Assembly: GCF_030684315.1 (NCBI RefSeq)
Contig: NC_081396.1
Span: 1,302,001 to 1,366,000, forward strand
DNA: 64,000 nt
DNA from: Stegostoma tigrinum
Taxonomy: Eukaryota
Direction: 5' to 3'
The notes beneath the pieces were generated by a model. It did no database searches. It was not told where the DNA came from and saw nothing but the letters and a program-made list of their open reading frames with translations. Both the position numbers and the translations under genes were made by a program. Below, piece by piece: positions 6,927-61,405 of this stretch (positions within the stretch are counted from its first letter, which is position 1; each line of letters begins with the position of its first letter).

Positions 6927-7607
6927 TGTTCTGAGTCATTACCCATTACTCATCCAACACCACTGAAGGTGAAAGATTTTCTGCTTACTTGTATGATTAA
7001 CTGTTGAGTTATTAATGTTCTTGGCATGTTATATGTCACGTTTACTGCTTCCAACAGAAATTGCTTTCATTGGATTCAATGACTTGCTGATACAACAACA
7101 CTTTAAAACAGAGAGTTAAAGTGTTCGTTGCTATGAGTTCTCCAATTGTAGTTATCCTTTAACAAGTATTATTGCTCAGCCTTTACCGAGGTGTGTTAAG
7201 ATCTTACACATTGTTGTGCATCTTGTAAGTCTTGTGCATGTCTTTTCTGAAGGTGCATTGGAAAATAACTTGGTGATTGCGCTGTCAACGTTTCAGGGAA
7301 TATATCCCAATTCAACGCTTTTTGACTCAAAATCAATTCTGCAGCTTCGATGTTGATGTGCAATCTCAAAAGCCTCAAATAGGCGGTATCATCACTGCAC
7401 CAAATTGTACCCTAATACACACTTACTTCACTGAAAATAATTCCAGTGTTTCGAACGGTTCCTCAGCACACTTTGATATGAATAGATTCCTGGAGGTGTT
7501 CTGGAATATTGTCCCCTGTTTCTATGTACCAGGTCATTCTGTTGAAGTTTTTTTTCTCAAGTTGTCCTGCTGTCGGTAGTCCAGCCGTAAACGTGTATTC
7601 CCATACT

Positions 7608-8000
7608 ATGGCTCTATGCATTTTCATTCTTCTGGGAACGTGAATCAAAACTGACATTTTCAACAACGAAACAAAAACGAAAATAAAAACAACATTAAAC
7701 ATATTCAGCGAAAGCAAGTGCCTCTCACTCTTGCAGTTAAGCAAGGTTATTTTAACTCCACGCACACTAACTTTGACAATAACAAGAGCGGTGTGGGCAC
7801 GGCGACACTTCCAGAGAAGTGAATATCGAGGCCTCACCCAAGAAATGAGCGAAGTGTAAGAACAAGAGTATCCAATATGAGGTTAAATCCATTGAACATG
7901 AGATTATGAATCTCAACGATGAAGGATGGAGTGAACCAATCTGACTAAAGCCACAAACCTGATCACAGACAGATAAATCTTTGAATGCAGTATGAGATAA
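7608..8000 (+). pseudogene. Weak V-segment relic with leader (copy B ~23925..24310)
   Basis: ATG-led hydrophobic leader MALCIFILLG, gt at 7640, ctcttgcag acceptor at 7736, VILT.., 3' LTKATNLITDR*IFECSMR resembling LTI..L...D.A.YYC. Manual, many gaps. Confidence 0.3.
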
Positions 8001-8493
8001 ATAATTCGAATCCCAAAAAGCCAGGGTACCAATACTTTTTGTTCAATCATGAACATTATTCACAGCTTCTGCTCCTAAAAGCTGGAAGTCCTGAAAAAAA
8101 CAACTTTGATATACATTTTCTTTTGTCTTTTTCCCCCCCGGATTTCATATTAGTCTGATAATAGTCTAATATTTAAAGCAGACGACCTTAAAAATACATA
8201 TCAATTATAATTACTAACCTGATGAAGAAAGAAATTATTCACTAATAGAGATACCATATTGGTTAATTTCATATTTGCAAATCTGCTTCTCATCCAATGA
8301 ACTAATTATGTTAGGAATAGATTGAGAACCTGCCTTTTATTCATCAGTGTCGTGTGGGCATTAGATAAGTTCTGCTCTGATGTGCATGCTAGATATAGAT
8401 ACTGTGATGCCTTGTAATCTGAAATGAATGTACAATGCTGCATGGAAACTCAATTGTTTTGAAAACATTAGAACATGTCTGAAGAAGATTAAT

Positions 8494-8836
8494 ATTGGAG
8501 TCACAACATTAGTTCTGTTCATCTCTCCACAGATAATGAAATAAATTATGAGTTTTTCGAGCACCCTTTGCTTTATTTTATATTTCAGGCATCCACAGGA
8601 TTGTTTTGAATAAATCAATATTCACATTGAATCTTACCGTCGCGTTTGGTACGTTCTTGAAAATGTGTGTCATTGACCTGCAGTATTGTCGCACAAAAGT
8701 CCGATTTCTGTTCACTTTATATTTAAGCAAAGCTTACTTTTCGACCAAAGCTATTTTAAAGAAAACAGTGAATCCCACAAATGTTCTGTTGACTTCATGT
8801 TCATGTCATATACACTCCCTTAATTGCGGATCAAGG
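8494..8836 (+). pseudogene. Decayed Ig/TCR V segment with leader (copy B 24802..25144)
   Basis: Leader MGATTLVLFISP (copy B), degenerate donor ataatg, tttcag acceptor at 8588 then (G)IHRIVLNKS...LKMC; copy B end tcatatacactaccttactgtcggatgaagg is SDTATYYC-x-MK with one substitution and two small deletions. Confidence 0.45.
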
Positions 8837-8865
8837 TGCCAAAGGATCGCAGACGTTTTCAGCAA

Positions 8866-9005
8866 GAGTCAATAAATGTGGAGCTAGAAAAAGAACGTCG
8901 GCCAGACAGCACCCGAGGAGAAGCAATTCAATATTCCGTGCAGAAACACTTCTTGGTTGCTGTCTGGCCTGCTGTATTTTCCCAGTTCCAGATTTATTGA
9001 CTTTG
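8866..9005. mobile_element. Fold-back PLE-terminus element, ~45-bp imperfect inverted arms (copy B ~25173..25315)
   Basis: agtcaataaatgtggagctagaaaa..ggccagacagca versus tgctgtctggcc..ttttcccagttccagatttattgact. Confidence 0.7.
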
Positions 9006-9442
9006 AATAAAACTCGCGGCGATGTAGGTTTTCAAATTTGTCACCTGAGTTTGACCATCACTCTGATATATGCTTTTCTTCTTGCTTTGTGAACTATCAC
9101 AATAGGTGGATCCTGGAGTCTCCAGCTACTGAATGTTGCCAAAACTGTTGTTTAAAACAGAAAAAAAAACTGACCGGCAGGGTTAATGAGAAATGTTGGA
9201 ACATGATGCATCTTGGCTACAAATCACGCCATAATGCATCGGAAAGTATGTCAGAATTCCCTGCTTTTGTTTCTGGAATCATTGTATCATTTTAATCTAT
9301 CAATATTGATGCACATCTTAGCGTTTAAATTGTGACGAAGGTGCGAAGGTAATGGTTTTACTCCACACAAATTTGAATACTGCCTAATGGTTTTATGCCC
9401 ACACCATACATTAAAAACGCAGTCACAGCACCATTTGCATGG

Positions 9443-9725: not shown

Positions 9726-9742
9726 GCATGCGTGCGCACACA

Positions 9743-9782
<40 letters not shown>

Positions 9783-12456: not shown

Positions 12457-12792
12457 TCAATGTCGAAACACTAATATGAATGCAACCAGCTTCAAGAAAC
12501 ATGTAGTAACATGGAGACATAATCATAATGTGTCAGCTGAATTTAATGTTGTTGTGGTTGAAGACAGAAGGAAAAGAATGAAGGAAAGGAAGAAATTGTA
12601 TAAGAGATTGCGAATTTTATCAGCTCTGTGTAGCAGTGGAAAATGACCAGCAGTGGCTAGACACTGTTTTCTGATGGAGCTCAGGAGTACAAAACCATCT
12701 TAAGTCATGATCTCGTGTTCGAGGACGCCAGCATGTATCACTGTGTGATGAAGGCACATTGTGACAATGTGCAATCGGCCTGTACATTATTA
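12457..12792 (+). pseudogene. Decayed Ig/TCR V segment plus RSS relic
   Basis: Phase-1 acceptor ctatcag; LI*MQPAS..GDIIIMC..W; LFS..TILSHDLVFEDASMYHCVMK; Cys-Cys distance 211 nt; exon 298 nt; heptamer-like CACATTG at 12755, 22-nt spacer ending ctgt, ACATTATTA. Confidence 0.55.
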
Positions 12793-13203
12793 TGTTTACT
12801 GTTGTATCTCTGCTGTCATGTGAGACATTTCCCACTGCAGGAGCTTTTGTTATATTAACTATTTTCAGAGAAAACGAAACTACTAATAAGTATTTAAACA
12901 TGTATCCTGCTGAGCTTCATAATGTTATAACCACTACTCGAGATGAACGGCATAGAAACACATGAAATGTGTTTTTCTTTGTTCAGTTCAGCAGCAGACG
13001 ACTTGGGTAACACAGAAGAAAAGTAAGTCTGAGAAAGGAAATCTGGAATTAAGATGCCCCCTCCAGTAGTTCAGCAGAATGAGCCGTATATCTGGCAACT
13101 GCAGTGCTTAAATTCAGAACTTCCCAATTCTGTTTCCTGACAAAGAGATCACTGCACACAGAATAATTCTAATTTAAGAAACACCGAGAAGATTTTATTC
13201 ACT

Positions 13204-13806
13204 TTACCGTTCAAAGAAACCATTTAAAACGGAGAAGGTATGCATTATCATCTTCTTCAGCTGCTCTCTGAACTTTGACTGAGAAACAGCGTATATGAAG
13301 ATCTTGCTACAAGTGCCAAGTAAATGGAGAACTTTCATGGTCAATTGTAGACCTGCCAGGCTGTCATGGAACAGTAAATGGCCTTGATATCACAGAGTGA
13401 GGGGACCTCATTCGCAAAGTATAAAGGCTGCTGTATGAAGTCTTAAGAAATGTTCTTTATGAGGATCATTGCACAGATGAGTCCCATGATTAGCAACACA
13501 GTTAACACAGTGCTGCATCTAGCCTTTAGGATCTCGGAGAAGATGGCCCCAAAACGGTCAATAGTAAAAGCCAATGTCAACCAAAGTGACGCATCCCGTG
13601 TAACAGAGAGGAGCACATCAATAACGCTGCATGCTTGCGTAACAGACAGAATACTGTGCCTGAAGTCGATTCTGGGGATCCGGTTGAGTAAACAAGTCCT
13701 GGTGATAACCAGTCAGTCAGCCACCTCTACGGCTACCAAGCAGAAAACGATACCCATGAGACTTCACACTGCCTTTGGGACAGAATTATAACTGGTATGA
13801 GGGTGG
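13204..13806 (-). pseudogene. GPR139-like pseudogene D (exon 2 only, ~300-nt internal deletion of TM5-TM6)
   Basis: Acceptor ttcttgcag; TLIPVIILSQRQC, VAVEVAD*, LLNRIPRIDFRHSILSVTQAC, TRDASLWLTLAFTIDRFGAIF, LIKNI, then jumps from AWQVYN* to KIFIYAVSQSKFREQLKKMI..FFER*; stops and frameshifts. Confidence 0.9.
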
Positions 13807-14878
13807 CTGCAAGAAATAAAGAGAGATGTTACCCAACGAGCTGTAACACACGAGCTACAGCTTTTTTCAAATCTTTGACTGAAACTCTCTTCCTCCACCA
13901 GGAGTCACAAACGCTCATTCATACCAGTTTCCATACAACCATCACCTTTGTGCTTGGTGAATAACTTCTCAAGCTCCAACACTTTTTCGATGCTAATACG
14001 TCTGGCCTGCAAATCTGAAAATACCTCCTGTTTCTCAGAATTCATGAACAAACAATACCATCAGAAATCGTAAAGTGCCTCAAATTCTGTCCTTTTGTGA
14101 ATGCATGTTATTGATGCTGGATTACCTTATTAATTATCAGTACTCAAACAGATTCATCACTCAATTCCACGCAGTGCTTTTTATCTTTCAGCGATCTGAT
14201 AAGCTGATGACCCATAACTAGGATAGATAATGCATTACTCACAGTCTGGCAATACTTCATCATTCAGGTTTGAATATATGCAGTACAATTTTTCACGTTG
14301 TCATATCGTATGACATAAATCATAGAAATGTCGGAATATGCTGAAGTGACTAATGTTCAGACGGAGCTGAATAGCTCATGAAGTAAAATCTTGCAGAGTG
14401 TTTTTTGCTCTCCAAATATATACAAAATATTTTTTTGAAAATCTCATAGAACAATTATCTACACAACATACCAATTGTAGCGAGAATTATGTAGCTAATA
14501 GCACAGAAAGAACCATTTGCTGGAACGTGCATCATCTGTTGGAAATAAATAGAGTTCTCCACTTTGGCCAGTTTGTTTCTGGGTCACTTTCGAAAGGAGT
14601 TGCATGAGCATCTCCCGAGAGGAAAATTGTACAGAATTCTTTTACTTGCATTCAGTAAACAAAATACCTCACGAAACAGAGGATTTAATTTTTTTATGAG
14701 TGAAGAACTGGCCTTATCTTCAGGTGCCACATTCTCGTTCGCTTTCGACAATCAGTTGAGGTCCTACCTCAAAAAAGAAATCTTTTTTTCCCATCTCTGA
14801 AGTGCTTGAAATTATTTCATGTCTTTTAGATTCCATTTTACTTGTGTCATTGTTCTTGGTGGCATAACCATAATCCCA

Positions 14879-18746: not shown

Positions 18747-18816
18747 TTGCATGCACCAGCAAATGGACCTGTCTTTGCCATTTGCTATTCTATTCTCGCT
18801 GCTATTGGTGCACCTG
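18747..18816 (+). pseudogene. GPCR pseudogene B, exon 1 (start ATG changed to TTG)
   Basis: TTG-HAPANGPVFAICYSILAAIGAP+G with donor gtaaaa at 18817; homologous to 2465..2534. Confidence 0.88.
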
Positions 18817-19997
18817 GTAAAACAACGGATCCTCTGAAGTGTTTGTGTTTGGCAAATTTCTCACATTTTGTATTTTCTCGTTCTTTATCAGGAATTATTT
18901 TCCTCTTGTTCTGCACTGTCTGGGCATAAGGAAATTCAATCAGAATAACAGTGTAAATGAGCGTGATAGACAATACAATACCATGCCATGATCAATTATG
19001 GACTGTTGCTTTGAATGGATTTATTACGGAATACAAGGACTATCTTCTTTTATCATGTTACATATTTATGGATTGATCGCTTATTAAACCGTTGAAGTCT
19101 ATTCTTATTCGTAAAATGATTGATGCCAAGGCAACAGAAAATAGACAAAAAAAGAAAAAAAAAAACCTCTCCAAAGCCCTAAAATTGATATGGTAAAGGT
19201 AGTGTTCATTCAGCGAGTTTTTGAGATTGAATTGTAATACATGACAGCATGATACTGGCACGTTCAGTCAATGGTTCAAAAGAGAACTGAACGCTCACTT
19301 CAAAATTAACAATATAAAGCCTGACGTGGAGATGATATTTAGTTGCATTTAGTGAGATGATCATTTGAAGAGGCAGCCTTGATGTAATTGTCCGAATGCC
19401 CTCCTTAATTGCTGCAGCAGGCATGCAATATAATGTACATCAGTGTACAAAATCAATTTATTATACTGTTCACCACTCGGATTTCTTAAAGCACAGGAAA
19501 TAGTACTCCAGTACATTCAGCAGAATGGCGTATTGTTGCAGTATAAAATGCATTTTCGTGCCGTAATGTCAGTGGAAGATAAAAATATTATAAAACATCA
19601 TCCTGATATTTGTATTGTTTTTCTCTGAGTCACAATGCGATTTAAAGACGGATGCATCTGTTTTACTCTTGTTTGCTAATATAATATTTAACATTAAGTA
19701 TGGAAATGCTTGAAATCGGCAAGTTCAGATGTAAGATTTTTATCGTAAATTCTTGTATCTTTTATGCTGTGCTGTTACGAAATGCACTTTGAGTTGTTCT
19801 TTGGAAATTCGTGTTTGGGATCATCAGCAGGTTGTCATGTGATCTGACAAGGTCAATATTTGTTGGTTGTACCCAGCTTCTACTTGAGAAATTCGAATTG
19901 CTCTCTTTGCTCAGCCACTGCAAGTAATTTACTGGAGAGGTTTCACAAAGCATTCTTTTTTAGATCAAGCCTAAATGACACAATGGTATTGGAGAAG

Positions 19998-20136
19998 NNN
20001 NNNNNNNNNNNNNNNNNNNNNNNNNNNNNNNNNNNNNNNNNNNNNNNNNNNNNNNNNNNNNNNNNNNNNNNNNNNNNNNNNNNNNNNNNNNNNNNNNNNN
20101 NNNNNNNNNNNNNNNNNNNNNNNNNNNNNNNNNNNN
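19998..20136. other. Assembly gap (N), probably a (GA)n tract
   Basis: Run of N at the position homologous to 3712..3797. Confidence 0.95.
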
Positions 20137-22091
20137 ACAATCGAACAGATAGCAGTTCAGCAACTTTATCTAGAGTAGAGATTACTTGCATGGAAACGTT
20201 GGTGATAACGGGAGATAAAGGGAAAAAACATCAGAAGCAGCAATCAATTATAGATTGTTACTACATGAAAGAGCCAAAATATGATATCACTGCACAATTG
20301 ACAGGCGTTTGTTCGATTTTTCTTCGTAATGTTACCATTAGCTGACAGGTTTAAAAAAAGGAGACCTTAATATAAGTGGAGAATATAGTTAAGACAATCA
20401 CTTTTGATTTGTTGGAAATGCACGTCAATAAAATGAACAGAGATGCTTCAGCAGAAGTTATGCCTTCGTTATACCATTTGAAAGATGTTGGATAACAGGG
20501 GAGCAAGCGTTAGTTTTTGAACAACGTTGATGTTTTAGAGGCTGAGCTGCAGGCATTGCAACACATCAGGGAGGGGAATGCTTCAACCACTATGTCAGCA
20601 GTCAATCGTCCTCAGATACAGAAGCATATGCCTGTGAATCAGGGAGACATGAGGATACAGAATTTAGTTTTGCAGGAGGATCACTGGTATCATTATGCTG
20701 TAAGTAGAGAATTTTATTCTCAGAATGGACCAAGTCACTTCACCGGATGAAGTGGCAGTGTACGAAAGCTTATGATGTCATGGTAAACTGTTGGACAATG
20801 ACCTGGTGTCGAGTAAATTGTGATTTTGGCGAGTTGTTACTTTAACTTAGCCTTAACTGAACGTATGAATGTTTTGCAAAAGATGGGGTTTAAGTTGCAC
20901 TCTGCCTCAATAACACATGCGTGGAAAATTTTAGATTCGTTTCATGAAACATTTCAAGAGAAGCTCCTGCACACTGCTGGATTAGTTCGGATTAAGTCCA
21001 TGTTTTATGTTCTGCAGAAATAAGAACACTATCATGCCGCCCTAATATAAAGTATAAAGGACAAATCGTTATTTGGTATGCCAATAATGTTCTGACAAAT
21101 GACTGAAATCTTTGGAGACCAGTCAGAAGATAACAAGAAGTAATAGGAGTGAAACGATTATGTCAAGGAAAATTGAACATTCATACCATCTCGACTATCT
21201 GAGAGTGATCATGCATTTTCATGTGGTGGCAATACAATTGAACCTCGAAGATAAGATAATGCGACCAGTAGCTACACAACAGAGCATTTACTAAACAATG
21301 ATACACAAAATCACGCACAGAACAAGTAGACCAGACAAAAGAACTGCATTAAAAAGAACAGAATAAGTCATATTCGGCCTCTCAGGCGAAAAATTGTGAG
21401 CCAATGTGTGAAGCGTTGGATCAGTTGGTGTTTCAGCTGTTTTAAGTGTCTCCTAATTGTCATAAACATAAAAAAGATGAAAAATATTCTGATGCGCAGT
21501 GTGTTCCAGTAACTAGTCAATGCTGATTTTAAAAATCCTTACAACTTTTCTCCCCAATATATCCCAGATAAATCCGTCAGGAGCTAAAATAATGTGCTCA
21601 TGTATTCACACGAGTATGTACCAGTGGACAATGATACTTTACTTCAGTGTAAGGGCAAATGTGAAATTGAGAATTCCCGCGCTCATATTTGAGCATGAGA
21701 TTGTTAAAAGTATAAAAACATATTTATTGATGATTCCCTGGAAAGTCAATGGACTTCAATGGGCGTATATTTGAAGTATAAATGGAGTGTTTTATGGTAA
21801 GGGTAATGACAGCCATGGTTTCCATTATTTTAAGTTTGATAAACAGCCACATTAATTATCATCATGAATAGAGAACTGGGTATGTGCTGATGAATTAGTG
21901 GATTGTGTCTTGTACTGGCAAGTGATCAACCCACTGTGAGTTTTGAGATAATTACCCATGGCATAGTCAGTGTCTTAAGTAGGAAAAAGTATGGAAGAGC
22001 AAGATTACAGCTAAGGATTGTTCGAGGATTACTGCTAAAGCTGCATGGAACAATTATATTGTTTTGTCACAGTTCTATTCATTTATTGCAG

Positions 22092-22991
22092 CAAATTTGC
22101 TGGCGATTATAATCCTATCACGAGGTCGGTGTGGACTGTCTCGTTGCATCACCTACGACCTGGTGGCCATAGCGGTGGCTGATTTCAATGTCATCATCAT
22201 TGGGTGCATCCTCAACAGGATTGGCCGGATTTATTTTCGAGACAGTGTACTTTCCACCACCCTTGCATGTAGGCTCAGCACCATGCTGATTTTTACAATA
22301 CGGGATAGCTCAGTCTGGTTGACAGTGGCCTTCACTTTCGACCGTTTTGTGGCCATCTGTCACAGGAGGCTGAATATCAGGTATTGCACTCATAGAACTG
22401 CATCAGTGGCCATCGGAATCATATGTACCCTGAGCTGTATCAAGAACACCCCTTTTGACTTCATCTTTAGCCCATTGTGCACACTGGATGGTGTGCCCTG
22501 GTTCTGCATTGTCAAGTCAATCTATTATATTTCACCCATTTGGCAGGCCTACGATTGGCTGGACCATATCTTAGTTCCTTTATCACATTCCTCCTTATTC
22601 TGCTACTCAATGCCCTGACTGTAAGTAGCATACCAGCAGCCAGCAGAGCTCGCAAAAGGATCCGGGCGCTCAGAATCGAGGAGACCAGGAGACGTCCAAT
22701 CGCAAGAAGTCCATTGTTCTGCTGTTCACCATCTCTCTCAGCTTCCTCCTCCTATGGATCATCCAAGTTGTACATTTCCTTCATGTGCGTATTCCAGGAA
22801 AGGCTTACTTCTCCAGTTTGGATTTTAATGACCCTGATTATGTTCTTCAAGTTGCAACCGACATGCTCCTGATAATCAATTCCTGCAACAATGTCTTCAT
22901 CTACGCAGTGACACAGAAAAGGTTCAGAGGGGAATTGAAGAGGCTGCTGATGTGCCCCATTGACACTGTCACCAGTTGCAAAAACGAATGA
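22092..22991 (+). pseudogene. GPCR pseudogene B, exon 2 (two 1-nt deletions)
   Basis: Homologous to 5773..6674; 1-nt deletions at ~22580 (gttcctttatcacattc vs gttccctttctcccattc) and ~22665 (atccgggcgct vs atcaggggcgct) split the protein over three ORFs. Confidence 0.9.
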
Positions 22992-28462: not shown

Positions 28463-28799
28463 TCAAAGTCGAAACACTAATATGAATGCAACCAGCTTCA
28501 CGAAACATGTAGTAACATGGAGACATTGTCATAACGTGTCACCTGAATTTAATGTTGTCCTGGTTGAAGACAGAAGGAAAAGAACAAAGGAAAGGAAGAA
28601 ATTGATTAAGAGATTGCGAATTTTATCAGCTCTGTTTAGCAGGGGAAAATGACCAGCAGAATCTGGACACTGTTTTCTCTTGGATCTCAGGAGTCCAAAA
28701 CCATCTTTAGTCATGATCTCGAGGTCGAGGACGCCAGCATGTATCACAGTGTGATGAAGGCAGATTGTGACAAAGTGAAAATTGGCCTGTATATTATTA
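28463..28799 (+). pseudogene. Decayed Ig/TCR V segment plus RSS relic (duplicate of 12457)
   Basis: QPAS..GDIVITC..SWLK; TLFS..TIFSHDLEVEDASMYHSVMK; CAGATTG + 23-nt spacer + ATATTATTA. Confidence 0.55.
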
Positions 28800-29209
28800 T
28801 GCTTACTGTTGTATCTCTGCTGTCATGTGAGACATTTCCCACTTCAGGAGCTTTTGGAATATCAACTATTTTCAGAGAAAACAAACCTACTAATATACAT
28901 TTAAACATGTATCCTGCTGAGCTTCATAATGTTATAACGGCTATCGTAGATGAACGGCATAGACACACAAGAAATGTATATTTCTTTTTTCAGTTCAGCA
29001 GCACATGACTTGGGTAACACAGAAGAAAAGAAAGTCAGAGAAAGAAAAGCTGGAATTAAGATGTCACCTCCAGTAGTTCAGCAGAATGAGCCTTATATCT
29101 GGCAACTGCAGTGCTGAAATTTAGAACTTTCCAATTCTGTTTTCTGACAAAGAGAGAACTGCGTACAGAATAATTCTAATTTAGAAACATCGAGAAGATT
29201 TTATTCATT

Positions 29210-29327: not shown

Positions 29328-29439
29328 CTGTTGAGAGTCAATTAAAATTCCAGCTGTTAAAGTCGGCATCGACTTTAATTCACGCGTAGAGAACATATAT
29401 GACATAAGTAACCCAAAGAAGAAGGAAGCTGAGAGAGAT

Positions 29440-41720: not shown

Positions 41721-42081
41721 TTTTTCCTTGTTGTGACATGATGAAAGGTTTCTATGCAGATCATTGACAAATTATTTAACTTCTCTGATGCGTTTCAGAC
41801 TTGCTGGTGACAAACCAAAAATTACAAATATGTGAGAAGTGCATCTTTACTTTGATTCGAGCTGACAATTTCACAACTGGTTTTGAAAATGACCGACATT
41901 AATATTGAGCAACATTACGAGGAGCTAATTTTAAAACTACATCCTCCTACATATGCAGGTACTACTGACATCACTCGAAATGCACCTTCTTTCTATTTCA
42001 AATGTATCCAGTCACCAGATGAGATACATTATCATGACATAATGATAACATAATGACATTCTGTAATTTGAAATTTCTGCA

Positions 42082-42387
42082 GTCTCCCAAGAGCCGGTTT
42101 CAGTGATGAGGTTTGATGAAGTTACAGTGAACATTAATTACAGCCATTCAACCACAACTAATCTTTGCAACAATATCGACAGAACTAGCACAATCCTGAT
42201 TATATTCCGACTGATGTATATTATTAGAGCACAGGGAATAGACCCTCCACTTTCTGCTCATATTGAACGTCTGAAAAAGTAAGGGTAATTCCTCCATCCG
42301 TGAGCTCCACCGATCTAAAAGTACAGTATATTATAAAGGACTATGAGAAAGAGTGACAGGAATTGGAGAAAGTTTCATTCAAAGCAA
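42082..42387 (+). pseudogene. Decayed TCR alpha/delta-like V segment plus RSS relic
   Basis: Across three frameshifts: VSQEPVSVMRFDEVTVNINYSHSTTTN / LQQYRQN*HNPDYI / AQGIDPPLSAHIERLKK / SIRELHRSKSTVYYKGL, then AAGAGTG-acaggaa.. 23 nt. The positions of the two canonical Cys are 196 nt apart; possible leader donor gcag|gtact at ~41959. Confidence 0.7.
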
Positions 42388-43089: not shown

Positions 43090-43885
43090 ACATGCAACAA
43101 TGTGCAGCAACATGGAACTGCACCAAGAGAAAGAGGAATGCCTCTTCCACGTATTCAAGGGTAATGGATACCCAAAGAACTTGGTCAGGAGATGACTGCA
43201 GGAACAGCATCAGAAAGATTCGACACGACCTGACACACTCATCACACTACCCTACATCACAAACACGTCAGAACTCACCACAAAACTTTTATGACCTCTG
43301 GGCATCAGAGTGACACACAAACCTACATCAACCCTCCGACAAGTGTTCATCCGAACTAAGGACCCACTCCCCGCCATGGACAGAAATAGTGTCATCTACA
43401 AGACCCCCTGTAGAAACTGTGAGAAACGCTCTATCTGATAAACAGGAAGGAAACTAACAACAAGAGCACATGAGCACCAAGTGCCTACAAAAAGACACGA
43501 CCAATACTCACTCATCTCAGTCCACATGGACAAGGAGAACCACGGCTCCAACTTGGACAATACCAAGATCCTGGGACAGGTTAGGCCGAGACAAACGCGC
43601 GGATTCCTGGAAGCATGGCACTCCACGAAGCAGGCTATTAATAAACACATTGAACTCGACCGCACAAACATTCCACTATGGAGGAAACCCGGAAGTGGGG
43701 AAATCCGTCGCAATTAACCACAGACTTTAAAAACCTGCTGGGAATACACACCGATGCTTCATTAGAGGCTGCACTGAGGATGTTACCAAACAACGTACCG
43801 AAGTGTCTGCAGAACAAAAAACCAGGTTGGGGCGGCCAACCAACCTCAACACGCACAACCCGAGCTACAGATCTATTCCAAAACA
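43090..43885 (+). mobile_element. Penelope-like element 3' part (GIY-YIG endonuclease), second PLE family
   Basis: VFKGNGYPKNL, TLPYI, KDPLPAMDRNSVIYKTPCRNCEKRSI*, RAHEHQ, FLEAWHS motifs; hammerhead-like gcaCTGAGGA..GAAGTGTCtgc at 43771..43810. Confidence 0.85.
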
Positions 43886-44294
43886 TTGGAGAGATTAGTT
43901 CAGCATGCAAATGTACTACCAAGGAGTGTGTGCATGACACGTTCATTTGAGACATTAAGGGGGACAGCTAAAAACTTCAACGGAAGCAATGTCTGCATAT
44001 TACGAGGGAAAGGCAGCCCTTCAGCTCTAAGTAAAAAGCTCAGAGAGTCAGTGGAGATCAAATGATGGGAGAGACAGAATTCACCGTGACTGTTCTGAGA
44101 ACTCTATGATCATACAACACAGTAAAAAGAAACTTTAAAGTTATATTCCCAGCACTAGGCGACATGTATAACTACTTTTTGTCATTTCAATAAATCTAAT
44201 TGTTGTTTCAAGGTGGTGGATTTTCAACCAATACGACGTGATTATCTCCATGAAATTATTTCAAATCTGTCCGAAACTTCTGCTCTTTTCTCAG

Positions 44295-45990: not shown

Positions 45991-48619
45991 GGAGGTCTTG
46001 AACAGGAATCCGTGTGCAAGTTGCTAAGTTCATCACATCAATAAATATTGATTCACACAATGGAGTTTACAATGATATCGTCCATCAGTGCAACCATCTT
46101 TGCCTTTGTTAGAATGCTGCATTGATGAATAAGCTAGCTATATCACATAAGCACATGGACACTGCATTATGACTGATTGACATTTTTGTATGATCTTCAG
46201 AACTAAGACAACATTATTCACTACATTTAAATGAAACTAACTCAAAACCACAATATGTTCAATCATTGCTTTTCAGAGATAAGATGATGTGCAAATGAAT
46301 GTCATGTGCCTTTGGCGGCTTATGCATATTTTATATGATCCCAATGAGCCTTTTCTTTCAACTGTGTTACATTTTGGGAAAATAGCAAGTTCTGTCCATG
46401 TGGGTGTTATTTCTTACACAAGTGAAGAAAGTTTTTATTTATTAAAATTTACTTTTGAATCACGTGCAATGACTCAGTTTTAGTGATGAACATTGAACAC
46501 ATCCACGAACAACTCCACCATTCTGTGTACATTTTATGCCTCAACCACAAAAAGTAACCTTTATAACTGTGCTCAGCATGGAAGTACCAAGATTCATCAG
46601 CTGAGGTAATGTGGTAATAAATAAGGGTTTCCCTTTTTTTGCCAATGATTAAACTGAGAATGTAAGAATTCTTCGTGTTTCATGTACTTCCAAATGACTT
46701 CAAATTTCACCACTCGCCACCTGTGCGAGTTCTATGGAATTAGCTACAATGCACAGTTCTGTTGGTGTTTTGCCATCTCAAGGATAAATCTCACAATCTT
46801 TTGCACATTTTTGCATCACAATAAGGAGCACGTTTCAAGATCGACAGGACAGATTATGTTTTGCCAATGTTCAATGACTAGAATGATGCAAAATGGTCTC
46901 ATGTGCTTTCGTAAAAGAACTCCGTAAGAGTTTGCTGCAGCTGAGTGAGCAGCTAGGAAGTTTCAGAAATTTAGGGGCAATCACATTACGGTGAGGCTGG
47001 GAGAATTGTACAGCTGACCATGTAAGTGCAAACATTGAAGAAATCAGATGGCTTTTTACCAGTACCTGTATCCATAATTTCTTTGTCAGCATTGCTGAAA
47101 GTTCAGATAATTGATTTTAATTCATTTCACCCGATCTGATAACCTGTTAAATAATATCTCTGGGATCTTAGCCCGCAACACTATATCACTGAAGCTCTAA
47201 CACGACGATGATGTAAATGTTCCTTCGGCATGGATATTGTTGGAGTTAATTACTCAAAATGAATCAAACATGGGATTCTTCCACTTTGTACATGAATTTC
47301 AAGCTACTTCGTGAATGGTTAAAAGAAACAAATCAATTTTCTACAAGGACCTTTGTCAGCATCATTTCACAAATTCTGGGCATGCTCATACAAATCAACA
47401 TAAAGTACCTCCATGTGACAAGAACGAATTACTTGAATTTGGAATGAATTTGGACTGCCTCGATTTGTTTGATGAAGCATAATTAATGTTAATGCAACAT
47501 AATTCTGCCGCCAGAATTAACTGCAGTTAGAAATACGAGATTGCTTGAAATTGTCCAAGATGGCATGCTTGTTTCATTGTTCCACCTATTATTTTCAGAA
47601 ATGCATGCTCCACTAACTGGCCTTGTATTTGCCATTTACTATCCAATCTTTTCGCTGTTCCAGTTATGACATGATCGATTGCTATGCAAGACAAAGGCTA
47701 AACTTATTACATTGATGATTTATGGAAAGCACCACAGATTTATATTTATTGCAAAGTGTTCTTAACTTATAGTTGTTCATTGCTGAACTTTTTTCTGAGT
47801 TTCTTCCTTAGGGACTGCATTTTTGCATTTTTGTGGAGCCTTTGTTTAAAGGAGCAATGTTCTGTATAAGATGTTACGGTATCATATTTGTTGTATGAAT
47901 GTTTAATTCATTTATTGATGTTCTTGTGCCAGATTTTCGCAATATTTTCAATCATAGACTATTCATTTCTGGCAGATTTTGCATTTGCTGCTCAAATTCC
48001 GATTCCCGAGACAAGGAACCTGGCTATGGTCTCCAGTTTTGGGAGCCAAGGTCCGTGTGTGGCAACCCAATGATTTAGACGGTGGAGACAGTGTGTTGGG
48101 TGTCGGTTTCAGGTCAGCCTGGCGGCAGATAATGTGTGCCAGCGGTTCAAAAATTCCGAGCAATAAGATAGAAACAATTCATCAACAAGTACTAAAAGTG
48201 TCTGAATTACGATCTTGTGCTGACTCCTTTTGCTGGGGAGGGTTTGCTGGATTCTTTCTAAAAATGGTATGGATTTGCACATTAGCACAGAAATAGCTCC
48301 AGTATGCTCTCCGAGACAGTGGAATGAGATTTGTTGCATAGTGACCGATGTACTCAAGAGGAGGAGATTGGTATCAGTGACCATTGGGCTGGTTGATATC
48401 AGGTATGAGGCAATTTATGTTACTGAATCTCGGCGAGTTTAGATCAGGTAAAACGAGAGTTGTGTAGTGACTGTTGGCGAGATTATATTGGACAGGAGAA
48501 GACTGATGTCAGTGACTTTGTGATAGGTTCATATCAGACAGGACAAACAGGTTGAATTTCAAGAGACACAGCCAAAACTGTGGACGCTGCAGTCAGAAAG
48601 AGCCAGTGTGAAGCAGGCG

Positions 48620-49735: not shown

Positions 49736-49739
49736 TTCT

Positions 49740-51860: not shown

Positions 51861-52225
51861 GACAATGCAATTTAAGGAAGGCTATGACCTTGCAGTGTTA
51901 CTGCTGGACTGCTAATACTGAGACAGAAGTTGTGTTCTGAGGACCAGACGTCACATTTCGCATTGGCAAATGGTACAATTAAGATTTTGTAAAATAAAAT
52001 CAGGAATGAAAAGTCGAGCAATGACCATGAATCCACGTCTATTTATCAGAAACAACCGATCTGAATCACTAATATCCTTTAAAGTGAGGAGACTGCCAAC
52101 TTTACCTGGTTTGGTCTACATGTGCCTCCCAACCCGCAGCAACGTGGTTAATTCTAAGCTGCCAAGATAACAAAATGTGAGGCTGGATGAACACAGCAGG
52201 CCAAGCAGCATCTCAGGAGCACAAA

Positions 52226-52261
52226 AGCTGACGTTTCGGGCCTAGACCCTTCATCAGAGAG
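52226..52261 (-). ncRNA. Identical hammerhead motif in the inverted pLTR copy
   Basis: Reverse complement of gacgtttcgggcctagacccttcatcag. Confidence 0.75.
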
Positions 52262-53666
52262 GGGGATGGGGTGAGGGTTCTGGAATAAATAGGGAGAGAG
52301 GGGGAGGCGGACCGAAGATGGAGGGAAAAGAAGATAGGTGGAGAGAGTATAGGTGGGGAGGTAGGGAGGGGATAGGTCAGTCCAGGGAAGACGGACAGAT
52401 CAAGGAGGTGGGATGAGGTTAGTAGGTAGATGGGGGTGCGGCTTTGACTCCCACAGCTACCTAGAGTACACCTCCTCCCACCCACCCTCCTGCAAAAATT
52501 CCATCCCCTATTCCCAGTTCCTCCGCCTCCGCCGCACCTGCTCACACGACAAGACATTCCACTCCCGCACATCCCAGATGTCCAAGTACTTCAAGGACCG
52601 CAACTTTCCCCTTACAGTGATCGAGAACGCCCTCGACCGCGTATCCCGTATTTCCCGAAACACGTCCCTCACACCCCAGCCCCACCACAACCGCCCTAAG
52701 AGGATCCCCCTCGTTCTCACACACGACCCCACCAACCTCCGGATACAACGCATCATCCTCCGACACTTCCGCCATCTACAATCCAACCCCACCACCCAAG
52801 ACATTTTTCCATCCCCACCCCTGTCGGCTTTCGGGAGAGACCACTCTCTCCGTGACTCCCTTGTTCGCTCCACACTGCCCTCCAACCCCACCACACCCGG
52901 CATCTTCCCCTGCAACCGCAGGAAATGCTAAACTTGCCCCCACACCCCCCCCTCACCCCTATCCCAGGCCCCAAGATGACATTCCACATTAAGCAGAGGT
53001 TCACCTGCACATCTGCCAATGTGGTATACTGCATCCACTGTACCCGGTGTGGCTTCCTCTACATTGGGGAAACCAAGCGGAGGCTTGGAGGCCGCTTTGC
53101 AGAACACCTCCGCTCAGTTCGCAACAAACTACTGCACCTCCCAGTCGCAAACCATTTCCACTCCCCCTCCCATTCTTTAGATGACATGTCCATCATGGGC
53201 CTCCTGCAGTGCCACAATGATGCCACCCGAAGGTTGCAGGAACAGCAACTCAAAGTCCGCCTGGGAACCCTGCAGCCTAATGGTATCAAAGTGGACTTCA
53301 TCAGTTTCAAAATCGCCCCTTCCCCAACTGCATCCCTAAACCAGCCCAGTTCGTCCCCTCCCCCTACTGCAACACACAACCAGCCCAGCTCTTCCCCTCC
53401 ACCCACTGCATCCCAAAACCAGTCCAACCCGTCTCCGCCTCCCTATCCTGTTCTTCCTCTCACCCATCCCTTCCTCCCACCCCAAGCCGCACCCCCATCT
53501 ACCTACTAACCTCATCCCACCTCCTTGACCTGTCCGTCTTCCCTGGACTGACCTACCCCCTCCCTACCTCCCCACCTACACTCTCTCCACCTGTCTTCTT
53601 TTCTCTCCATCTTCGGTCCGCCTCCCCCTCCCTACCTATTTATTCCAGAACCCTCACCCCATCCCC

Positions 53667-53702
53667 CTCTCTGATGAAGGGTCTAGGCCCGAAACGTCAG
53701 CT
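53667..53702 (+). ncRNA. Minimal type I hammerhead ribozyme motif in the PLE pLTR
   Basis: CUGAUGA-A-GGGU(CUAG)GCCC-GAAAC-GUC; palindromic ACGU stem III typical of dimer-forming PLE hammerheads; stem I is only ~2 bp. Confidence 0.75.
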
Positions 53703-54494
53703 TTTGTGCTCCTGAGATGCTGCTTGGCTTGCTGTGTTCATCCAGCCTCACATTTTGTTGTCTTGGATTCTCCAGCATCTGCAGTTCCCATTATCTCTAA
53801 CTCTAAGCTGCCGCCTGGTTAATATGGAATGGGCGAAAAATTCTGGACTGGCCACCAAAACCATCATTCTCTGAATGAATTATCTTTTTACCTTTTAAAA
53901 TGAAAACAACAACAGGTAATGGTCAAAACCCTTCTGCTCAGATGCCCTTGCCTGCAAATTATGTGGCAAGAATCTTACTTCCATTGAACAGTCCAAACAT
54001 CTTTTTTATTCCTTATCTGTCTGCATGCAGAATTGACTGCTTCAGTGACTGAAGAAACAATAATGGAGCTGTACATTGTGCAGCCATCAGGTGCATCCAT
54101 ACTGATAAACAGTGTTAATTAAAGAAGTAGCTGAATATAATTCTACACAATGGGCTGATCTGATGATTTCATGCTGTAACACCATGTGACTGAAATGAAT
54201 GGCTTTGAACATCCACAGCCATCTTTGCTCGAGTTATATATCCCTGATAATATGAGATTTCTGTGTGGTTTAATTGCTCAGTAAAATGTTACCTTGATGT
54301 CACGAGCAGTCACTCTTGATTCACCTCTGGAGACTATCTCCTTCAATAATGCTTACATCATGGTGAAATGAGGTCAGGAACTGCGTGAATCTGTCAGAAC
54401 ATAAACTTTTCAATGGTTAGCAGCTGATTCTTTTTACCAGGTGCTTTTTGAGTTAACTGTTATGGAAACGAAGAATTTGCCAAGTATAAGAATG

Positions 54495-56075: not shown

Positions 56076-58451
56076 GAATCAATGCTTGTTTGGAATACAT
56101 CAGGATGGTAGCTTGAAGGCATCTCATCATTCATCATTACATGAATGTATGAACAAAGGTGCAAAGGTACAACATAAGAGCTTTGGATGTCTTTTTATTG
56201 GTAAAGATGCAACCAGGAAGTATGGACATGGAAATTTAAAGGGGCAATTAAATAGATTTGGAACCATATCCTTTTGTAGATCAGCTCAGGGCCAACAGCA
56301 ACCATCAAAGCACTGTAGAAAAGAATACATGAGGGAGATTATGTGTGTACAGAAACACATGAGAACATGAAGCTTATTAACAAGTAGAAAGAGTGGAGAA
56401 GTAAAATTACAGGAGGCAGAAAGGACAGGAGAAGCAAACTTTCTGACAACTGCACTTCAGTTTAGGTGGATCAGGGATTCACTCAAATGGACTGGAAACA
56501 TAGGAATTGCCCCCTTGCCAATTATATAGCCTGCCACTTAAACAAAAATTAGGAATATGCAAAATTCAGAGAAACTAATAGCAGAAAGCACAAAAGAAAA
56601 TTAACCATTCTCTTGTAGACATTGAATTTGATAGAGACGTCTAAGAATCTTTGAGTAACAGTAAAACTACTGTGGAAATTGCAGCAGCTAAAAACAACCG
56701 ACATCTGAGAGACTCTTGGGCAGATTTCGAAGAGGGAAATCTTTAAGCTGCGCAAAGGAATGTCAAAAAGAACATGAAATTTAGCATAGAAATTAAACTG
56801 AATGTAAATCGATAAGAAAAGACAACCTTCGCAAATGAAAAATGCAAATGGACTGAGACAAGTGTAAGTCTTCATGATGTATTAAACTAAAACACATGCC
56901 TTCAATGAGCAATGTCTATTTTCACTGAAATTGTGCTTTCTGTTAGATTTTCCTGTGGTGATAATATAGCTGTGTCACTCTCTCAATTACCCCTTCAGAA
57001 AGTGGTTATCTCCGTGGTGTTAGAACGCTGCTTTGTGTTTATCTTTCCACAAGAAAGAATGGAATTTTACATTTCAAAACATGGACACGTGTAACTCACT
57101 TTACATTTTCCCACTCTGAGAAGGCGTGATCGAATTAGCTGTCGTTCCTTTGTTGCTTCCCATGAAGTTACATATTTGACTTGCTCCAATGTGTATTTAA
57201 TTAAAGTTTGAAAGCTATTTTTGAACATATGTATACCTGCGTAAAATATAACAGGCTATCTTCCTCACTGAACCATGTTAAAATGTTGATGCAATAAGTT
57301 TCAAGTTAATACGATTGCCAGGAATATGGAATTCGTTCTCGGATTAATATTCTTCCTGCATAAAATGTGAACCAGCAACTGAACAAAAGTGACTCAGATT
57401 TCGTTTGCTGGTGTGCCAGAGTCCGTCCATGCAAAGAGTATTAGCCAGGAGTAATATATTCAGGAGTTCAAAGCGTTATATATAATTCTCTGCATGCTCT
57501 TTTTAATCCTATCATGCTCATCATTTTTAAACTCTCCTCTTGCTCTGTATTGTTGTATTTTGGAAATCATCCCCACGATGTTTAGGCTTTTCTATATCTG
57601 TCTCCGTGTCCTGAATCGTGTGTATCCTGAGCGCTGATTCGATGGACACAGATACATATCCGAGCAGCTAAGTTCCATCTGAAACATTTTTTGACTGATG
57701 AGTTTCACTACATGGTCCGTCAGCAACATTTTAGTTTTTCTATCCTTCTGATGTGTGTCTCTGAAACAGGTATTTCTGACACTCAAATGCAGACTGACAA
57801 TAAAGGTAAACAATGTACTACCAGAAATCTGAATATTCACAAGTATGAAGTTCATAAATGTAAAAGTGTAGCTGGCAGCGAATGTTTGAAGAGATGGACT
57901 CCGGCACACTGTAGAACTGCATAAAAATCTTTTGTGACCATTTATCGAGAATACTTGTCAATGATGTGAACATCTCTGTGATTAAAGCATTTGAGGGAGC
58001 AGCTTCGAAATGCATTCACTATAATAAACCAATAACAACACGGCAGTGTTAAGGCCAATTTTAGAAATGGAAACATATTACTCTGATGTGGATCGTATGT
58101 GAATGAGGAAGATCCGAGAATTACTTTCCATCAGAAATTGTTAAAAAGAAACGACTAAAACAGTAAATGATTCCAGAAGATGGGGAAAATGTAAAGGCAT
58201 GAAGCAATTTAATTAGCATTGAAAGAAGTGGCTCGTACATAATGATGTGAAGGATATTATTCTGCCCTATCAAACATTATGATTTCTCTTGAAGTCTGTT
58301 CAAGTAATGGTTTGAATAAGATATAATCCAGAAAATATTTTATCAAATTATTTTCACCTTTTTACTGAGAGAATCACTTTGCGGAATTATTTGACTGGAC
58401 GCAACTCTTTTGCATGTGTGCACATCCTTTCACATTTCTTCATGCATCTAG

Positions 58452-58790: not shown

Positions 58791-58994
58791 ACATGTCGTG
58801 TACGTGTTGATTTTCTTAATTACCAGTTCAAACAGCAACACGTACAATTGCAATCAGCATCCCAGGTACATTACCATTCAATTCAATTTTAAATGTCCAA
58901 ATTGAACATCTCCTCACCCTGTTACGGCGTTCCAAAAAATCCCCCACTCCATTTTTCATTCTAAGCAAAACAGCACAATGTTAAACAACTGAAT

Positions 58995-59255
58995 GAAACG
59001 GTGGCACAGTGGTTGTTACTTTTACCTCACAGGGCCAGGGACCCGGTTTCATTTGCACTCTCAGGAAACTCTCTGCGAGGAATTTGTATATTCCCCTGTG
59101 CCTGCAGGCGTAATCTCACAGTTCAAAAATGCCAGGTTAATTGGGCTATCCATGGAACATGTCGGGTTATCGTGATGGCATGGGTGTGCGCTGGATGCTG
59201 TTCAGAATGTCGATGAGATTAATGGCGTCCTTCGCGTTGCTGGGATTCCATGCTT
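58995..59255 (+). mobile_element. Old HE1-type V-SINE
   Basis: cggtggcacagtggtt..cctcacagggccagggacccggtttcatt..ggaatttgtatattcccctgtgcctgc. Confidence 0.75.
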
Positions 59256-59269
59256 ATCCTATATGTCTA

Positions 59270-61130
59270 ATTAAGCTCTCTTCCAAGCTAAGAAGCTTCA
59301 ATCCAAGCAACACTCTTGTGTATCTCCTCTTCACACCCTCAATTGCAATCGTACCCTTCTACAGTATGATCAAAGAACAATACTGCTCAAGAATAGTCTT
59401 TCGGCCCTCCATGTCTGCGCCACCACATTTCACCCTTCCATAAGAAAATTACCTTCCCTTACAGCATTCGTTTCCCTCTACACCCCACCTATTGAGGTAT
59501 TGGTCCAACTTCTTGTCGAAGGCAGCTGTTGTGTCTGCTTCAACCAGGGCTCTTGCAAAGTCTTCCAAACATACATTTCCACTTGTGTGAAAAACTTGCC
59601 TTGCATATCTCTCTTTAGTTCCCCCCTTTGCACCTTGAACCTGCATCCCTGAGTAATTGATCATTCCTCCCTGGGAATAATTTGCATCCCTTCCACTCCA
59701 TCTACTGCCATTCACATTCATACAAACATCAGTTCGATCACCCACAACCTCCTGTGTTCCAGTGAAACTAAACTCAGTCTACCCACACTTCCCTCAGAGC
59801 TAAATACCTGATGCCAGGCAACAGCTGAGTAAACAAAAACAAAGTTGCTGTAAAATGTCAATAAGTCTCTCAGCATTTGTGAAGAAAAAGAAAACCAAGT
59901 TAAAGTTTCGGGTCCGGTGACCATTCCTCAGAACTCAAAAATCTGTTTTATTTTTTCCTGATTTACAGCATCCACAGTTCTTCCTGTTTTTATTTAACTC
60001 CGAGAAAGCCTTTTCTATTCCCTCCCTAAAGCATCAACAACCTGCTGGTAGTGTGCTGACGAGAACTGTTTGCAATATTCCAAGTATGACCGAACTATAA
60101 AGTCGCAGCATAACTTAGCTATCCTTATACTCAACGCCCCTTGCAATGAAGGCGAGCATACGTTAAGTCCGTGGTGAACAGAACTGCACTCAATGGCCGA
60201 AATAAGTCTTGTAAAGCACTAACGTCATACTCCCTTGCCATATTAATTGTCCAACCTGCACCAACTTGCAATTGTTTAAATACATATTTAATGACTGAAA
60301 GGGAGCGTTGATCCAGTCCAATATTTTCTACCCAATCTGTATTGAACAGCGATCACTTAAAATTCAACACAATACTGGAGGTCTGGAGTGACACGTAGTC
60401 CAGACCATGTGAGGATACCAGATTTCCTATCTGAAAGCACACTATTAGAGTTAAATTCCTCAGTCGTTCATCTGCCCATTCGATCAATGTGTCCAAATAT
60501 TCTTGCAAATTAAGATCTTCTTCATCACCATAAACTACATTGCCCCTTTTGCCACACCGTAGATGTATTTAAATCTGCCCCAACCGGTCATCTATATCGT
60601 TTATGTATATGGTATGAATAATAAACGTCTCATTATCGACCTTTGTGTTAGACCACTGCACACTGTGATCCAGTCAGACAACAGACTTCGACCACTACGC
60701 CCAGGCATGTTCCACCAAGCCGATTCTGAATCTAAATTGTCACATTATCGTGGATGCCATCTGTTTTCCATTCTTCATCAATCTCCCATGTGGAATTTGA
60801 CGAAATCCGTACAAATTACAGCAACTGTATATACATAATGAACGTCATCTACGTAAATGATTGCTTTCCCAATAAATTAAATCAATTTGTCAGGCATGAC
60901 ATTCCTCTGACAAAGTCATGCTGACTATATCTGATTGAACCTTGCCTATTTACGTGGACACAAACTCTGTATTTAAGACTAATCTCCAATGGTTTCCACA
61001 GCGGTGGTGTGAGAACCACAGTGAGATAAATTCCTGGGTCATCCCAATTATCCTTCTTGAGAAGTGGAACGACGTTCGTTTTTCTCCAGTCCGCTGCCAT
61101 CTCCCATGCGGCCAGACATAAATTAAAATA
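59270..61130 (-). mobile_element. Several decayed CR1 LINE fragments with a PLE tail inserted at ~59825..59998 (hammerhead-like CTGAGGA..GAAAC at 59901..59931, minus strand)
   Basis: DWRKTNVVPLLKK..PG.Y..V.LT..QHDFVRGMSCLTN; RLSLVSLEHRRLW.DRT.V. Confidence 0.75.
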
Positions 61131-61269
61131 TTACTCAGATCACTGGGATGCCTTACCTCTTGTCTACCACAGCTGTCCTTTAATTCATGTTAACCTCAAA
61201 ACATTCACCTGACCTCCCATATTAAATCCTAAGTGATACAGATTAGAAAAATAAAATGACAGTGATCGG

Positions 61270-61405
61270 TCACTGAGGCAATTCGTAACAAGGTGAATTA
61301 GGAGTCACTTATCAGCTATGACAGTCACTATGGTCCATGTCCTTTCACAATATATCACGCTTTCAGCACAGTGACATTACTTTCAGTCACTCTGGTGCAA
61401 AAGTC
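61270..61405 (+). pseudogene. V-segment 3' relic with a well-preserved 23-RSS
   Basis: SAMTVTMVHV..TIYH-AF-AG, then CACAGTG (61367..61373), exactly 23 nt, GCAAAAGTC (6/9 nonamer match). Confidence 0.45.

Follow-up and report, generated by a model that had tools for sequence, protein, structure and literature searches.

A pocket of GPR139-related receptor genes and V pseudogenes within a shark T cell receptor alpha/delta V array

G protein-coupled receptor (GPCR) genes are known to lie among the variable (V) segments at the alpha/delta locus for the T cell receptor (TCR) in mammals. Olfactory receptor (OR) genes stand among TRAV1 and TRAV2 in human, mouse and sheep, with two at the TRAV1 end of the human locus and three in mouse (PMC4574546). 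Here we describe a stretch of 64 kb from the 3.2-Gb genome of the shark Stegostoma tigrinum (C55:1,302,001-1,366,000, where C55 is contig NC_081396.1) in which receptor genes of another GPCR family are interleaved with the V segments of a TCR alpha/delta locus. We refer to the whole stretch as the window, and positions given without a contig name are counted from its first letter. The host locus is what Flajnik et al. (2025, PMC12227049) describe as the elasmobranch antigen receptor complex (AgRC). Shared features are a TCR alpha/delta block of diversity, joining and constant (D-J-C) elements, V genes that lie in either orientation across megabases, pseudogenes, NAR-TCR cassettes, and immunoglobulin heavy chain (IgH) clusters in between. 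The available parts of that paper give gene models only; the decayed elements and the receptor pocket come from the present analysis.

Two further systems bear on this locus. NAR-TCR is a doubly rearranging TCR delta whose cassettes run in the order NAR V, D, J and supporting Vdelta, and a cysteine in the a-b loop is the defining feature of its NAR V (PMC1845163). In the teleost TRA/TRD locus most V genes oppose the D-J-C elements, and it has been argued that a first join there inverts the DNA in between and so retains it (PMC8559430). The shark locus, its scattered V pseudogenes and NAR-TCR are already known, and the receptor genes have been annotated individually by NCBI. A literature search, with some key shark papers outside its reach, returned no paper on GPR139-like genes in a shark TCR locus or on an expansion of that family. 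The main text and two supplement files of PMC12227049 contain no mention of GPR139 or GPCRs, and a search by terms alone in the available text of PMC11979771, PMC3964593, PMC5931798, PMC12208981 and bioRxiv 2025.06.08.657570 found no such interleaving.

An earlier reading of the window, made from its letters without database searches (the sequence-only reading), had proposed a fossil array of 20 plus-strand V segments interleaved with GPR139-like receptor genes. We consider it likely that the window is a pocket of GPR139-related receptors in a functional TCR alpha/delta V array, shaped by birth-and-death segmental duplication with V pseudogenes as passengers.

A receptor-rich pocket within a live V array

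A live shark TCR alpha/delta V array surrounds the window. V-set exons are spread over C55 from 0.39 to 9.2 Mb, and since the genome search scored the best 150 of 986 V-set candidates, V counts are lower bounds. The V genes extracted from C55 are of TCR alpha/delta, Ig-like or IgH type and carry a recombination signal sequence (RSS) of the 23 type at the 3' end. A scan of C55 from 770 to 970 kb, with five duplicates removed from its 76 rows, found J segments with 12-RSS on the minus strand, 62 at 850-916 kb and nine at 951-961 kb. C1-set exons are located at 844.5 kb (E 2e-5) and 947.5 kb (E 0.002, below the Pfam cut-off). A D segment (TRDD) with 12- and 23-RSS lies on the minus strand at C55:961,080, and gap-free sequence runs from it to the first V gene at C55:971,128 on the plus strand. 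This intact block (TRDD, nine TRDJ, TRDC, 62 TRAJ and TRAC) is 0.34-0.46 Mb from the window. With the D segment only 341 kb away, the window is neither distal nor an orphan copy, and the description of the array as dying, distal or orphan has to be abandoned. The broader proposal of a shark antigen-receptor V array was correct, as V-set matches flank the window with D-J-C in cis, and the intact V, D, J and C genes that the sequence-only reading suggested looking for nearby are indeed on C55.

The nearest intact V genes on either side are at C55:1,284,980 and 1,574,929, and the window sits in the gap of about 290 kb between them. The 64 kb of the window contain five V-like elements. By comparison, the preceding 90 kb hold 18, and one 48-kb NAR-TCR block elsewhere in the locus holds 13 distinct ones. 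The window is a V-poor, GPCR-rich pocket of the V array. Farther along the contig are IgH constant clusters (2.79-4.87 Mb) and intact NAR-TCR cassettes (2.04 and 5.39-5.78 Mb), every intact one found being on the plus strand.

The D-J-C block and most V genes are arranged head to head, which implies that joining proceeds by inversion over distances of up to 4.8 Mb and spans the IgM clusters. In V orientation counts compiled by hand from several searches of the two V blocks, 63 of 80 stop-free matches oppose the D-J-C strand, and stops are commoner in minus-strand matches (13/30 versus 17/80, Fisher p 0.03). The epaulette-shark table of PMC12227049 likewise places TCR alpha on the minus strand and the first V genes mostly on the plus strand, followed by a 336-kb gap in the listed V genes; assembly error is therefore an unlikely explanation for the orientation. 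The stingray and catshark tables of the same paper place proximal V genes on the C strand. The shark array resembles the teleost locus in having most V genes opposed to D-J-C, but in teleosts these V genes lie beyond the C end, whereas in the shark they lie beyond the D end.

Of the class A GPCR genes in the window, two are intact, each with two exons; five further copies or fragments are broken. The first intact gene (2465-6674, plus strand, located by tblastn) has exon 1 at 2465-2534 followed by a GT donor and a stop-free exon 2 at 5773-6674, which by arithmetic give 323 aa, and it matches Pfam 7tm_1 at E 7e-20. The second (32422-36924, minus strand; exon 1 36924-36855, exon 2 33323-32422) has a spliced translation of 323 aa that is open to its stop and a 7tm_1 match at E 9e-21. 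Both assignments to class A rest on 7tm_1 above the cut-off, a DR[YF] motif and an intact two-exon frame. Purifying selection acts on the receptors, with a dN/dS of 0.20-0.38 among the four intact ones that lie within the window or beside it. The receptors at C55:1.292 and 2.070 Mb had been candidate pseudogenes and were rejected as such, the sole stop in each case being intronic.

The broken copies were located by tblastn, with blastn for the last two. They comprise a pseudogene at 13344-14532 on the minus strand (exon 1 14532-14467, exon 2 remnant with stops), a pseudogene at 18747-22991 on the plus strand that duplicates the 2465-6674 gene but starts with TTG and has a frameshifted exon 2, a fragment at 29341-29439 on the minus strand (E 4e-15), a lone exon 1 at 47601-47654 on the plus strand, and an exon 2 remnant at 50496-50128 on the minus strand.

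The interleaving of GPCR and V genes is real and locus-wide, with at least 30 receptors in the V blocks. Genome-wide, the best 129 of 4238 candidates were scored, so that receptor counts are lower bounds, and 56 of the 129 matches are on C55. There are 22 in the first V block and eight in the second, and 10 of these 30 are in the 290-kb gap that holds the window. When counted by eye, 26 of the 29 matches at 60% identity or more are inside the two V blocks. None of the 129 falls in the IgM-cluster block, and no receptor was found in the 200 kb around J-C. The sequence-only reading was right in this respect, having described the V array as interleaved and co-duplicating with a GPR139-like receptor family. 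Seven more matches are interleaved with V genes at 9.0-9.2 Mb; the TCR-type V genes of this region (C55:9.08-9.37 Mb) are 8 Mb from D-J-C, and several have non-canonical heptamers (CACCATA, CACCATG).

What kind of receptor is this? The best match of the 2465-6674 receptor in the PDB is GPR139 (E 6.5e-12, 48.7 bits over residues 45-327; next match 32.1 bits). The receptor at 32422-36924 has 1412 database relatives at E<=1e-10, most of them named by NCBI as 'probable G-protein coupled receptor 139'; the best 120 of the 1412 are elasmobranch wherever named, and the nearest relatives of the window receptors are from carpet sharks at 77-79% identity. The Atlas neighbours, run with the relative P0002, are GPR139-named clusters and clusters resembling FMRFamide or peptide receptors. 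In GPR139, the Trp/Phe pocket includes F109, H187, W241, R244 and N271 (PMC5430874). The 5.8-kb receptor keeps F109 and W241, with D, Q and D in place of H187, R244 and N271 (two of five kept, as read by eye from the alignment). The window receptors are distant, multi-copy relatives of vertebrate GPR139/GPR142 and are not GPR139 orthologues. In a tree of 130 proteins, the eight locus receptors included group together as a single clade with an SH-aLRT of 100, separate from 12 copies on contigs C14, C58 and C61, and several locus receptors pair with single genes of other carpet sharks.

V pseudogenes and a decayed NAR-TCR cassette

The window holds five V-type elements, all of them pseudogenes: three of TCR alpha/delta V type, and the NAR V and supporting Vdelta of one NAR-TCR cassette. 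In an nhmmer search with the final library (105 V sequences, intact and decayed, from 26 families, all taken from C55), the five matched at E 1e-15 or better, at 12616-12814, 28622-28820 and 42080-42382 on the plus strand and at 57919-57594 and 62420-62157 on the minus strand. Beyond these, no window match to the library was better than E 0.01, and 128 kb of control DNA, either reversed or taken from outside the locus, gave a best match at E 0.11.

The element at 12461-12792 (plus strand, E 1.3e-17) belongs to the family of the intact V at C55:2,279,205, to which it is 58% identical (184/319 nt), and a duplicate of it was found at 28467-28799 (plus strand, E 1.3e-15; four-copy alignment). Each copy has 7-9 stops and is a pseudogene. 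This V piece exists in four copies genome-wide, all within 83 kb, and seven stops are common to all four. Therefore, the V was dead before the unit that carries it was copied. The third element (42074-42387, plus strand, E 4e-27) shares 220/329 nt (67%) with the intact V at C55:2,300,246 and is colinear, flanks included, with a pseudogene at C55:5,623,137. Its splice acceptor AG is at 42081-42082, exactly at the coordinate given by the sequence-only reading, and frameshifts and a 21-nt deletion mark it as a pseudogene. The 23-RSS of all three are recognisable in position and decayed, with spacers of 22-23 nt. The heptamers read CACATTG at 12755-12761 (followed by a 22-nt spacer and a decayed nonamer), CAGATTG in the duplicate, and AAGAGTG at 42349-42355. 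The family of the third element has its own peculiarity: its intact members, C55:2,300,246 among them, have open frames and good 23-RSS but neither the conserved Trp nor the first canonical Cys, which rules out an intradomain disulfide. Eight members were found to be stop-free.

Set against these results, the list of 20 plus-strand V fossils was mostly overcalled, yet it points at a real feature. Three sites were borne out (12457, 28463 and 42082), two mark real features that were misread, and 15 (7250, 7737, 8589, 9100, 9865, 24899, 42521, 43900, 44295, 45674, 46780, 47150, 55729, 56620 and 58452) were not. A profile search against a null had been suggested; it places the three sites above control DNA (E 1e-15 to 4e-27) and leaves the 15 null. 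When scored against 460 control pieces of real DNA, the 17 plus-strand pieces other than the three have a median p of 0.39, with one of the 17 at p<0.05. That piece, 42521, corresponds to the flanking DNA 3' of the 42082 paralogue, and no V lies under it where the window is colinear with an intact unit. The two misread sites are on the minus strand, counter to the claim that all were on the plus strand: 57650 does overlap a V element, which is the supporting Vdelta, and the heptamer at 61367 is a real RSS heptamer but belongs to the NAR-TCR J, not to a V.

A match to repeats had been named as grounds for doubt, and it applies to two sites. Site 43900 is the end of a Penelope-like retroelement fragment (43150-43950; it matches repeats in either orientation, and its translation was assigned to the family by eye), and no V was hidden beneath the element at 43.2-43.9 kb when repeats were excised and the DNA rescored. 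Site 56620 looked NAR-V-like at p<0.004, yet it is covered by an old dispersed repeat (56500-57000, with copies in both orientations in at least eight other loci), the best-kept copy of which has no raised V score. An RSS-like match at 61004-61044 was also rejected, being inside an old repeat.

Other particulars of the proposed array fared no better. The ordered V framework motifs could not be recovered, as D-x-[AG]-x-Y-[YF]-C is absent from all three plus-strand frames, and W-[YF]-[RKQ]-Q, corresponding to the proposed W-Y-R-Q, occurs once, at no listed site. The local spacing of 0.45-0.5 kb is unsupported with 15 sites scoring like control DNA. The fossils were said to be missing from the list of open reading frames, but the supporting Vdelta lies in a 121-aa stop-to-stop frame. 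None of eight pseudogene frames, one of them in the wrong frame, matches Pfam V-set, whereas V profiles from the same contig do detect the pseudogenes.

Detection depended on family coverage. Plain six-frame motif and RSS scans, and a protein hidden Markov model without frameshifts, gave nothing usable in the window. With a first library of 56 V sequences from 13 families, three tests detected 12457 but left 42082 on the border, and 12457 itself escaped a glocal comparison at the DNA level (p 0.11); both became decisive when 25 more V exons were added. One or another of the 15 sites could still be a V fossil of an unsampled or extinct family. The glocal V plus RSS score is heavy-tailed on real DNA (5/318 control pieces reached the score of 42082), and reversed-sequence nulls alone were therefore not relied on; 2-mer shuffle Z-scores were inflated and were left out of the results.

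One could still argue for a dense, dying or orphan array of some 20 tandem plus-strand fossils, 0.5 kb apart and too old for profiles, given that three of the 20 sites are real, that 42082 became clear only when its family was added, and that V density elsewhere in the locus is as high as in the 48-kb block. We regard this as very unlikely. Established pseudogenes as diverged as 58-67% identity are recovered at E 1e-15 or better; with 26 families the remaining sites stay null; two sites are repeats, two are minus-strand features, there is no V under 42521, and a live D-J-C block is 341 kb away.

The remaining two V-type elements belong to a decayed NAR-TCR cassette. From 62.4 to 57.6 kb the minus strand carries, in order, a NAR V, a D remnant, a J with a 23-RSS and a supporting Vdelta. 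The order and the a-b loop Cys agree with NAR-TCR (PMC1845163), and in spacing and sequence the cassette is colinear with intact ones at 60-63% identity (62% over the whole cassette). It differs from them in that all its parts are broken and in its strand, which is opposite to that of the cassettes at C55:2.04 and 5.39-5.78 Mb. The NAR V (62110-62413, minus strand; nhmmer E 1.5e-24, genome-wide search E 3e-8), which was missing from the list of the sequence-only reading, has six stops in its matched part and a decayed V-RSS and keeps the a-b loop Cys, with a TGT aligned to the Cys of intact members. Intact members of the family match VNAR structures best (PDB E 6e-18). The DNA upstream aligns weakly over the leader region of an intact cassette, and just upstream of the dead NAR V is a high-copy LINE 3' end with a reverse-transcriptase fragment (62938-64000). 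Contigs from two DNA runs cover the NAR V stretch at single-copy depth, each differing from it by one or two letters, and their agreement indicates that the lesions are real; one of the runs may be the assembly's own sample.

The D remnant (61715-61760, minus strand; alignment to the intact cassette at C55:2.037 Mb) has both 12-RSS decayed. The J pseudogene (61312-61405, minus strand) has J-like coding sequence and is colinear with the J of intact cassettes. Its RSS on the minus strand consists of the nonamer GACTTTTGC, a 23-nt spacer and the heptamer CACTGTG (61373-61367); the heptamer is canonical, the nonamer is near-canonical, and the splice donor is changed to AT. The supporting Vdelta (57585-57926, minus strand; nhmmer E 1.4e-37) is frameshifted with a decayed 23-RSS and shares 209/314 nt with C55:5,681,457. 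Its CDR1 Cys codon reads TGG, and the paralogous dead Vdelta at C55:1.408 Mb keeps this Cys; the loss in the window is consistent with decay. Neither double rearrangement nor expression of the window cassette is predicted from these lesions.

The part of the window from 44 to 62 kb recurs as an older inverted copy at C55:1.405-1.424 Mb (59-68%), in which there is another dead J and another dead supporting Vdelta. Decayed NAR-TCR pieces were also seen at C55:1,404,900-1,408,200, 1,688,064, 2,250,267 and 5,333,703. Several intact cassettes (e.g., C55:2,040,781) have a second near-perfect 23-RSS 120-220 nt downstream of the supporting Vdelta's own RSS.

Might these dead elements still serve as gene-conversion donors or as cryptic RSS targets? 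The canonical heptamer and near-canonical nonamer of the J, and the persistence of many V pseudogenes in the locus, could be taken in that sense. The V and D RSS have decayed, however, and the J has lost its donor. Identities of 58-67% to the nearest intact V are too low for gene conversion, and the coding parts of the cassette are about as diverged as its flanks. We find this explanation extremely improbable.

Duplication units and their passengers

Two copies of a unit of about 16 kb, each with a GPCR gene, a dead V and a GPCR fragment, occupy 260-29439 as direct repeats (87-96% identity, spacing of about 16.0-16.3 kb). More copies lie just upstream (plus) and at C55:1.376-1.393 Mb (minus), with blastn blocks of 87-92%. 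The pair 12457/28463, which had been recognised as duplicated, is one V pseudogene in this unit. A second unit, of about 39 kb, is found at C55:2.06-2.24 Mb and combines one GPCR with several V pseudogenes and a V that is intact. Three of its copies were compared; their identity is 78-98%, and the closest pair has a receptor stop in common. Since this unit pairs an intact V with stop-bearing receptors, hitchhiking runs both ways. Another repeat in the window is a young Penelope-like element (52162-53801; GIY-YIG match at E 4e-4, below the cut-off) between 283-nt inverted repeats that are 97% alike.

Units of 16-40 kb that hold V segments and receptor genes have thus been duplicated and inverted in the V array, and a likely mechanism is that selection keeps whichever gene still works while its neighbour is copied as a passenger. 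In the window, the receptors are the living genes, and the five dead V-type elements should add nothing to the repertoire. The passenger status of the V is suggested by the contrast between the stops common to all four V copies and the low dN/dS of the receptors. It is possible that receptor dosage retains the units, or that drift does so on a small, repeat-prone chromosome. A mostly inverted V array may also tolerate passengers, as a first inversional join would keep the intervening DNA, and secondary joins could still delete it. The receptors themselves may sense small molecules or peptides other than the Trp/Phe of GPR139; the D, Q and D substitutions in the pocket might mean a lost response to Trp/Phe and a gained one to basic ligands.

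Several points limit this reading. The 56 family matches on C55 are spread over much of the contig, and the others of the 129 lie on many contigs; the interleaving may be the colonisation of a whole small chromosome. The database rows of the tree are the query's best matches, which biases it toward a clade around the query. In the V orientation count, the 80 matches are stop-free, which is not the same as functional.

An alternative to passive copying is functional coupling, in which the locus receptors are expressed in lymphocytes under TCR alpha/delta control or are moved or deleted clonally by V(D)J joining. The concentration of close matches in V blocks, with none among the IgM clusters or J-C, could be explained in this way, as could the purifying selection, the occurrence of relatives in many galeomorph sharks, and the position of two family copies on contig C54 about 30 kb from Ig-type exons. 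Yet local tandem duplication alone predicts clustered near relatives, the receptor genes point both ways, some receptors in the V-bearing 39-kb unit are pseudogenes, and the family also forms clusters on C14, C58 and C61, with no V in the 120 kb sampled there. We therefore judge functional coupling unlikely. A bolder version, in which galeomorph sharks keep about 30 orphan GPCRs in the V array for T-cell biology, to be switched on by locus enhancers or repositioned or deleted by V(D)J joins, seems quite unlikely to us. Were it true, each T-cell clone would have a different set of sensory receptors, and a second gene family, itself without RSS, would be diversified somatically by RAG.

Regions on three other contigs were also noted. 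On C54, the two GPCR copies are near Ig-type C or V exons (14.17-14.21 and 15.19-15.23 Mb); one is 65% identical to a window receptor, suggesting that Ig clusters and receptors moved together. A large V-domain cluster on C11 (96.07-97.36 Mb) has a germline-joined J-like strand and no RSS, and a tandem repeat on C15 (61.27-61.70 Mb) has more than 50 copies of an exact 12-RSS-like motif.

The likeness to the mammalian OR/TRAV arrangement, which the sequence-only reading had drawn, holds for the layout, as GPCR genes lie between TCR alpha/delta V segments in both. It does not extend to the genes: mammals have two or three at the far end of the locus (PMC4574546), as opposed to at least 30 non-OR receptors of another GPCR family through the shark array. 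No window open reading frame matches 7tm_4 (PF13853, olfactory receptor), and none of 18 OR matches in the genome is on C55, the three strong ones being on C6 and C3. Since the shark OR matches are elsewhere, the two layouts are best viewed as analogous and not as inherited from the same genes.

It is nothing unusual for a TCR locus to contain V pseudogenes; the present analysis adds three points. With its dozens of selected, non-olfactory orphan GPCRs, the shark array is an independent and larger parallel to the ORs near TRAV1 in mammals. The stops common to all copies show that a V pseudogene can be multiplied by riding along with a neighbouring gene family, and caution is called for in reading V counts as repertoire history. 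The dead NAR-TCR cassettes near D-J-C show that this doubly rearranging receptor had been seeded over more of the locus and that copies were later lost. Olfactory receptors are very few in sharks (PMC11979771), and expression and deorphanisation studies could therefore turn directly to an orphan GPCR family of this size.

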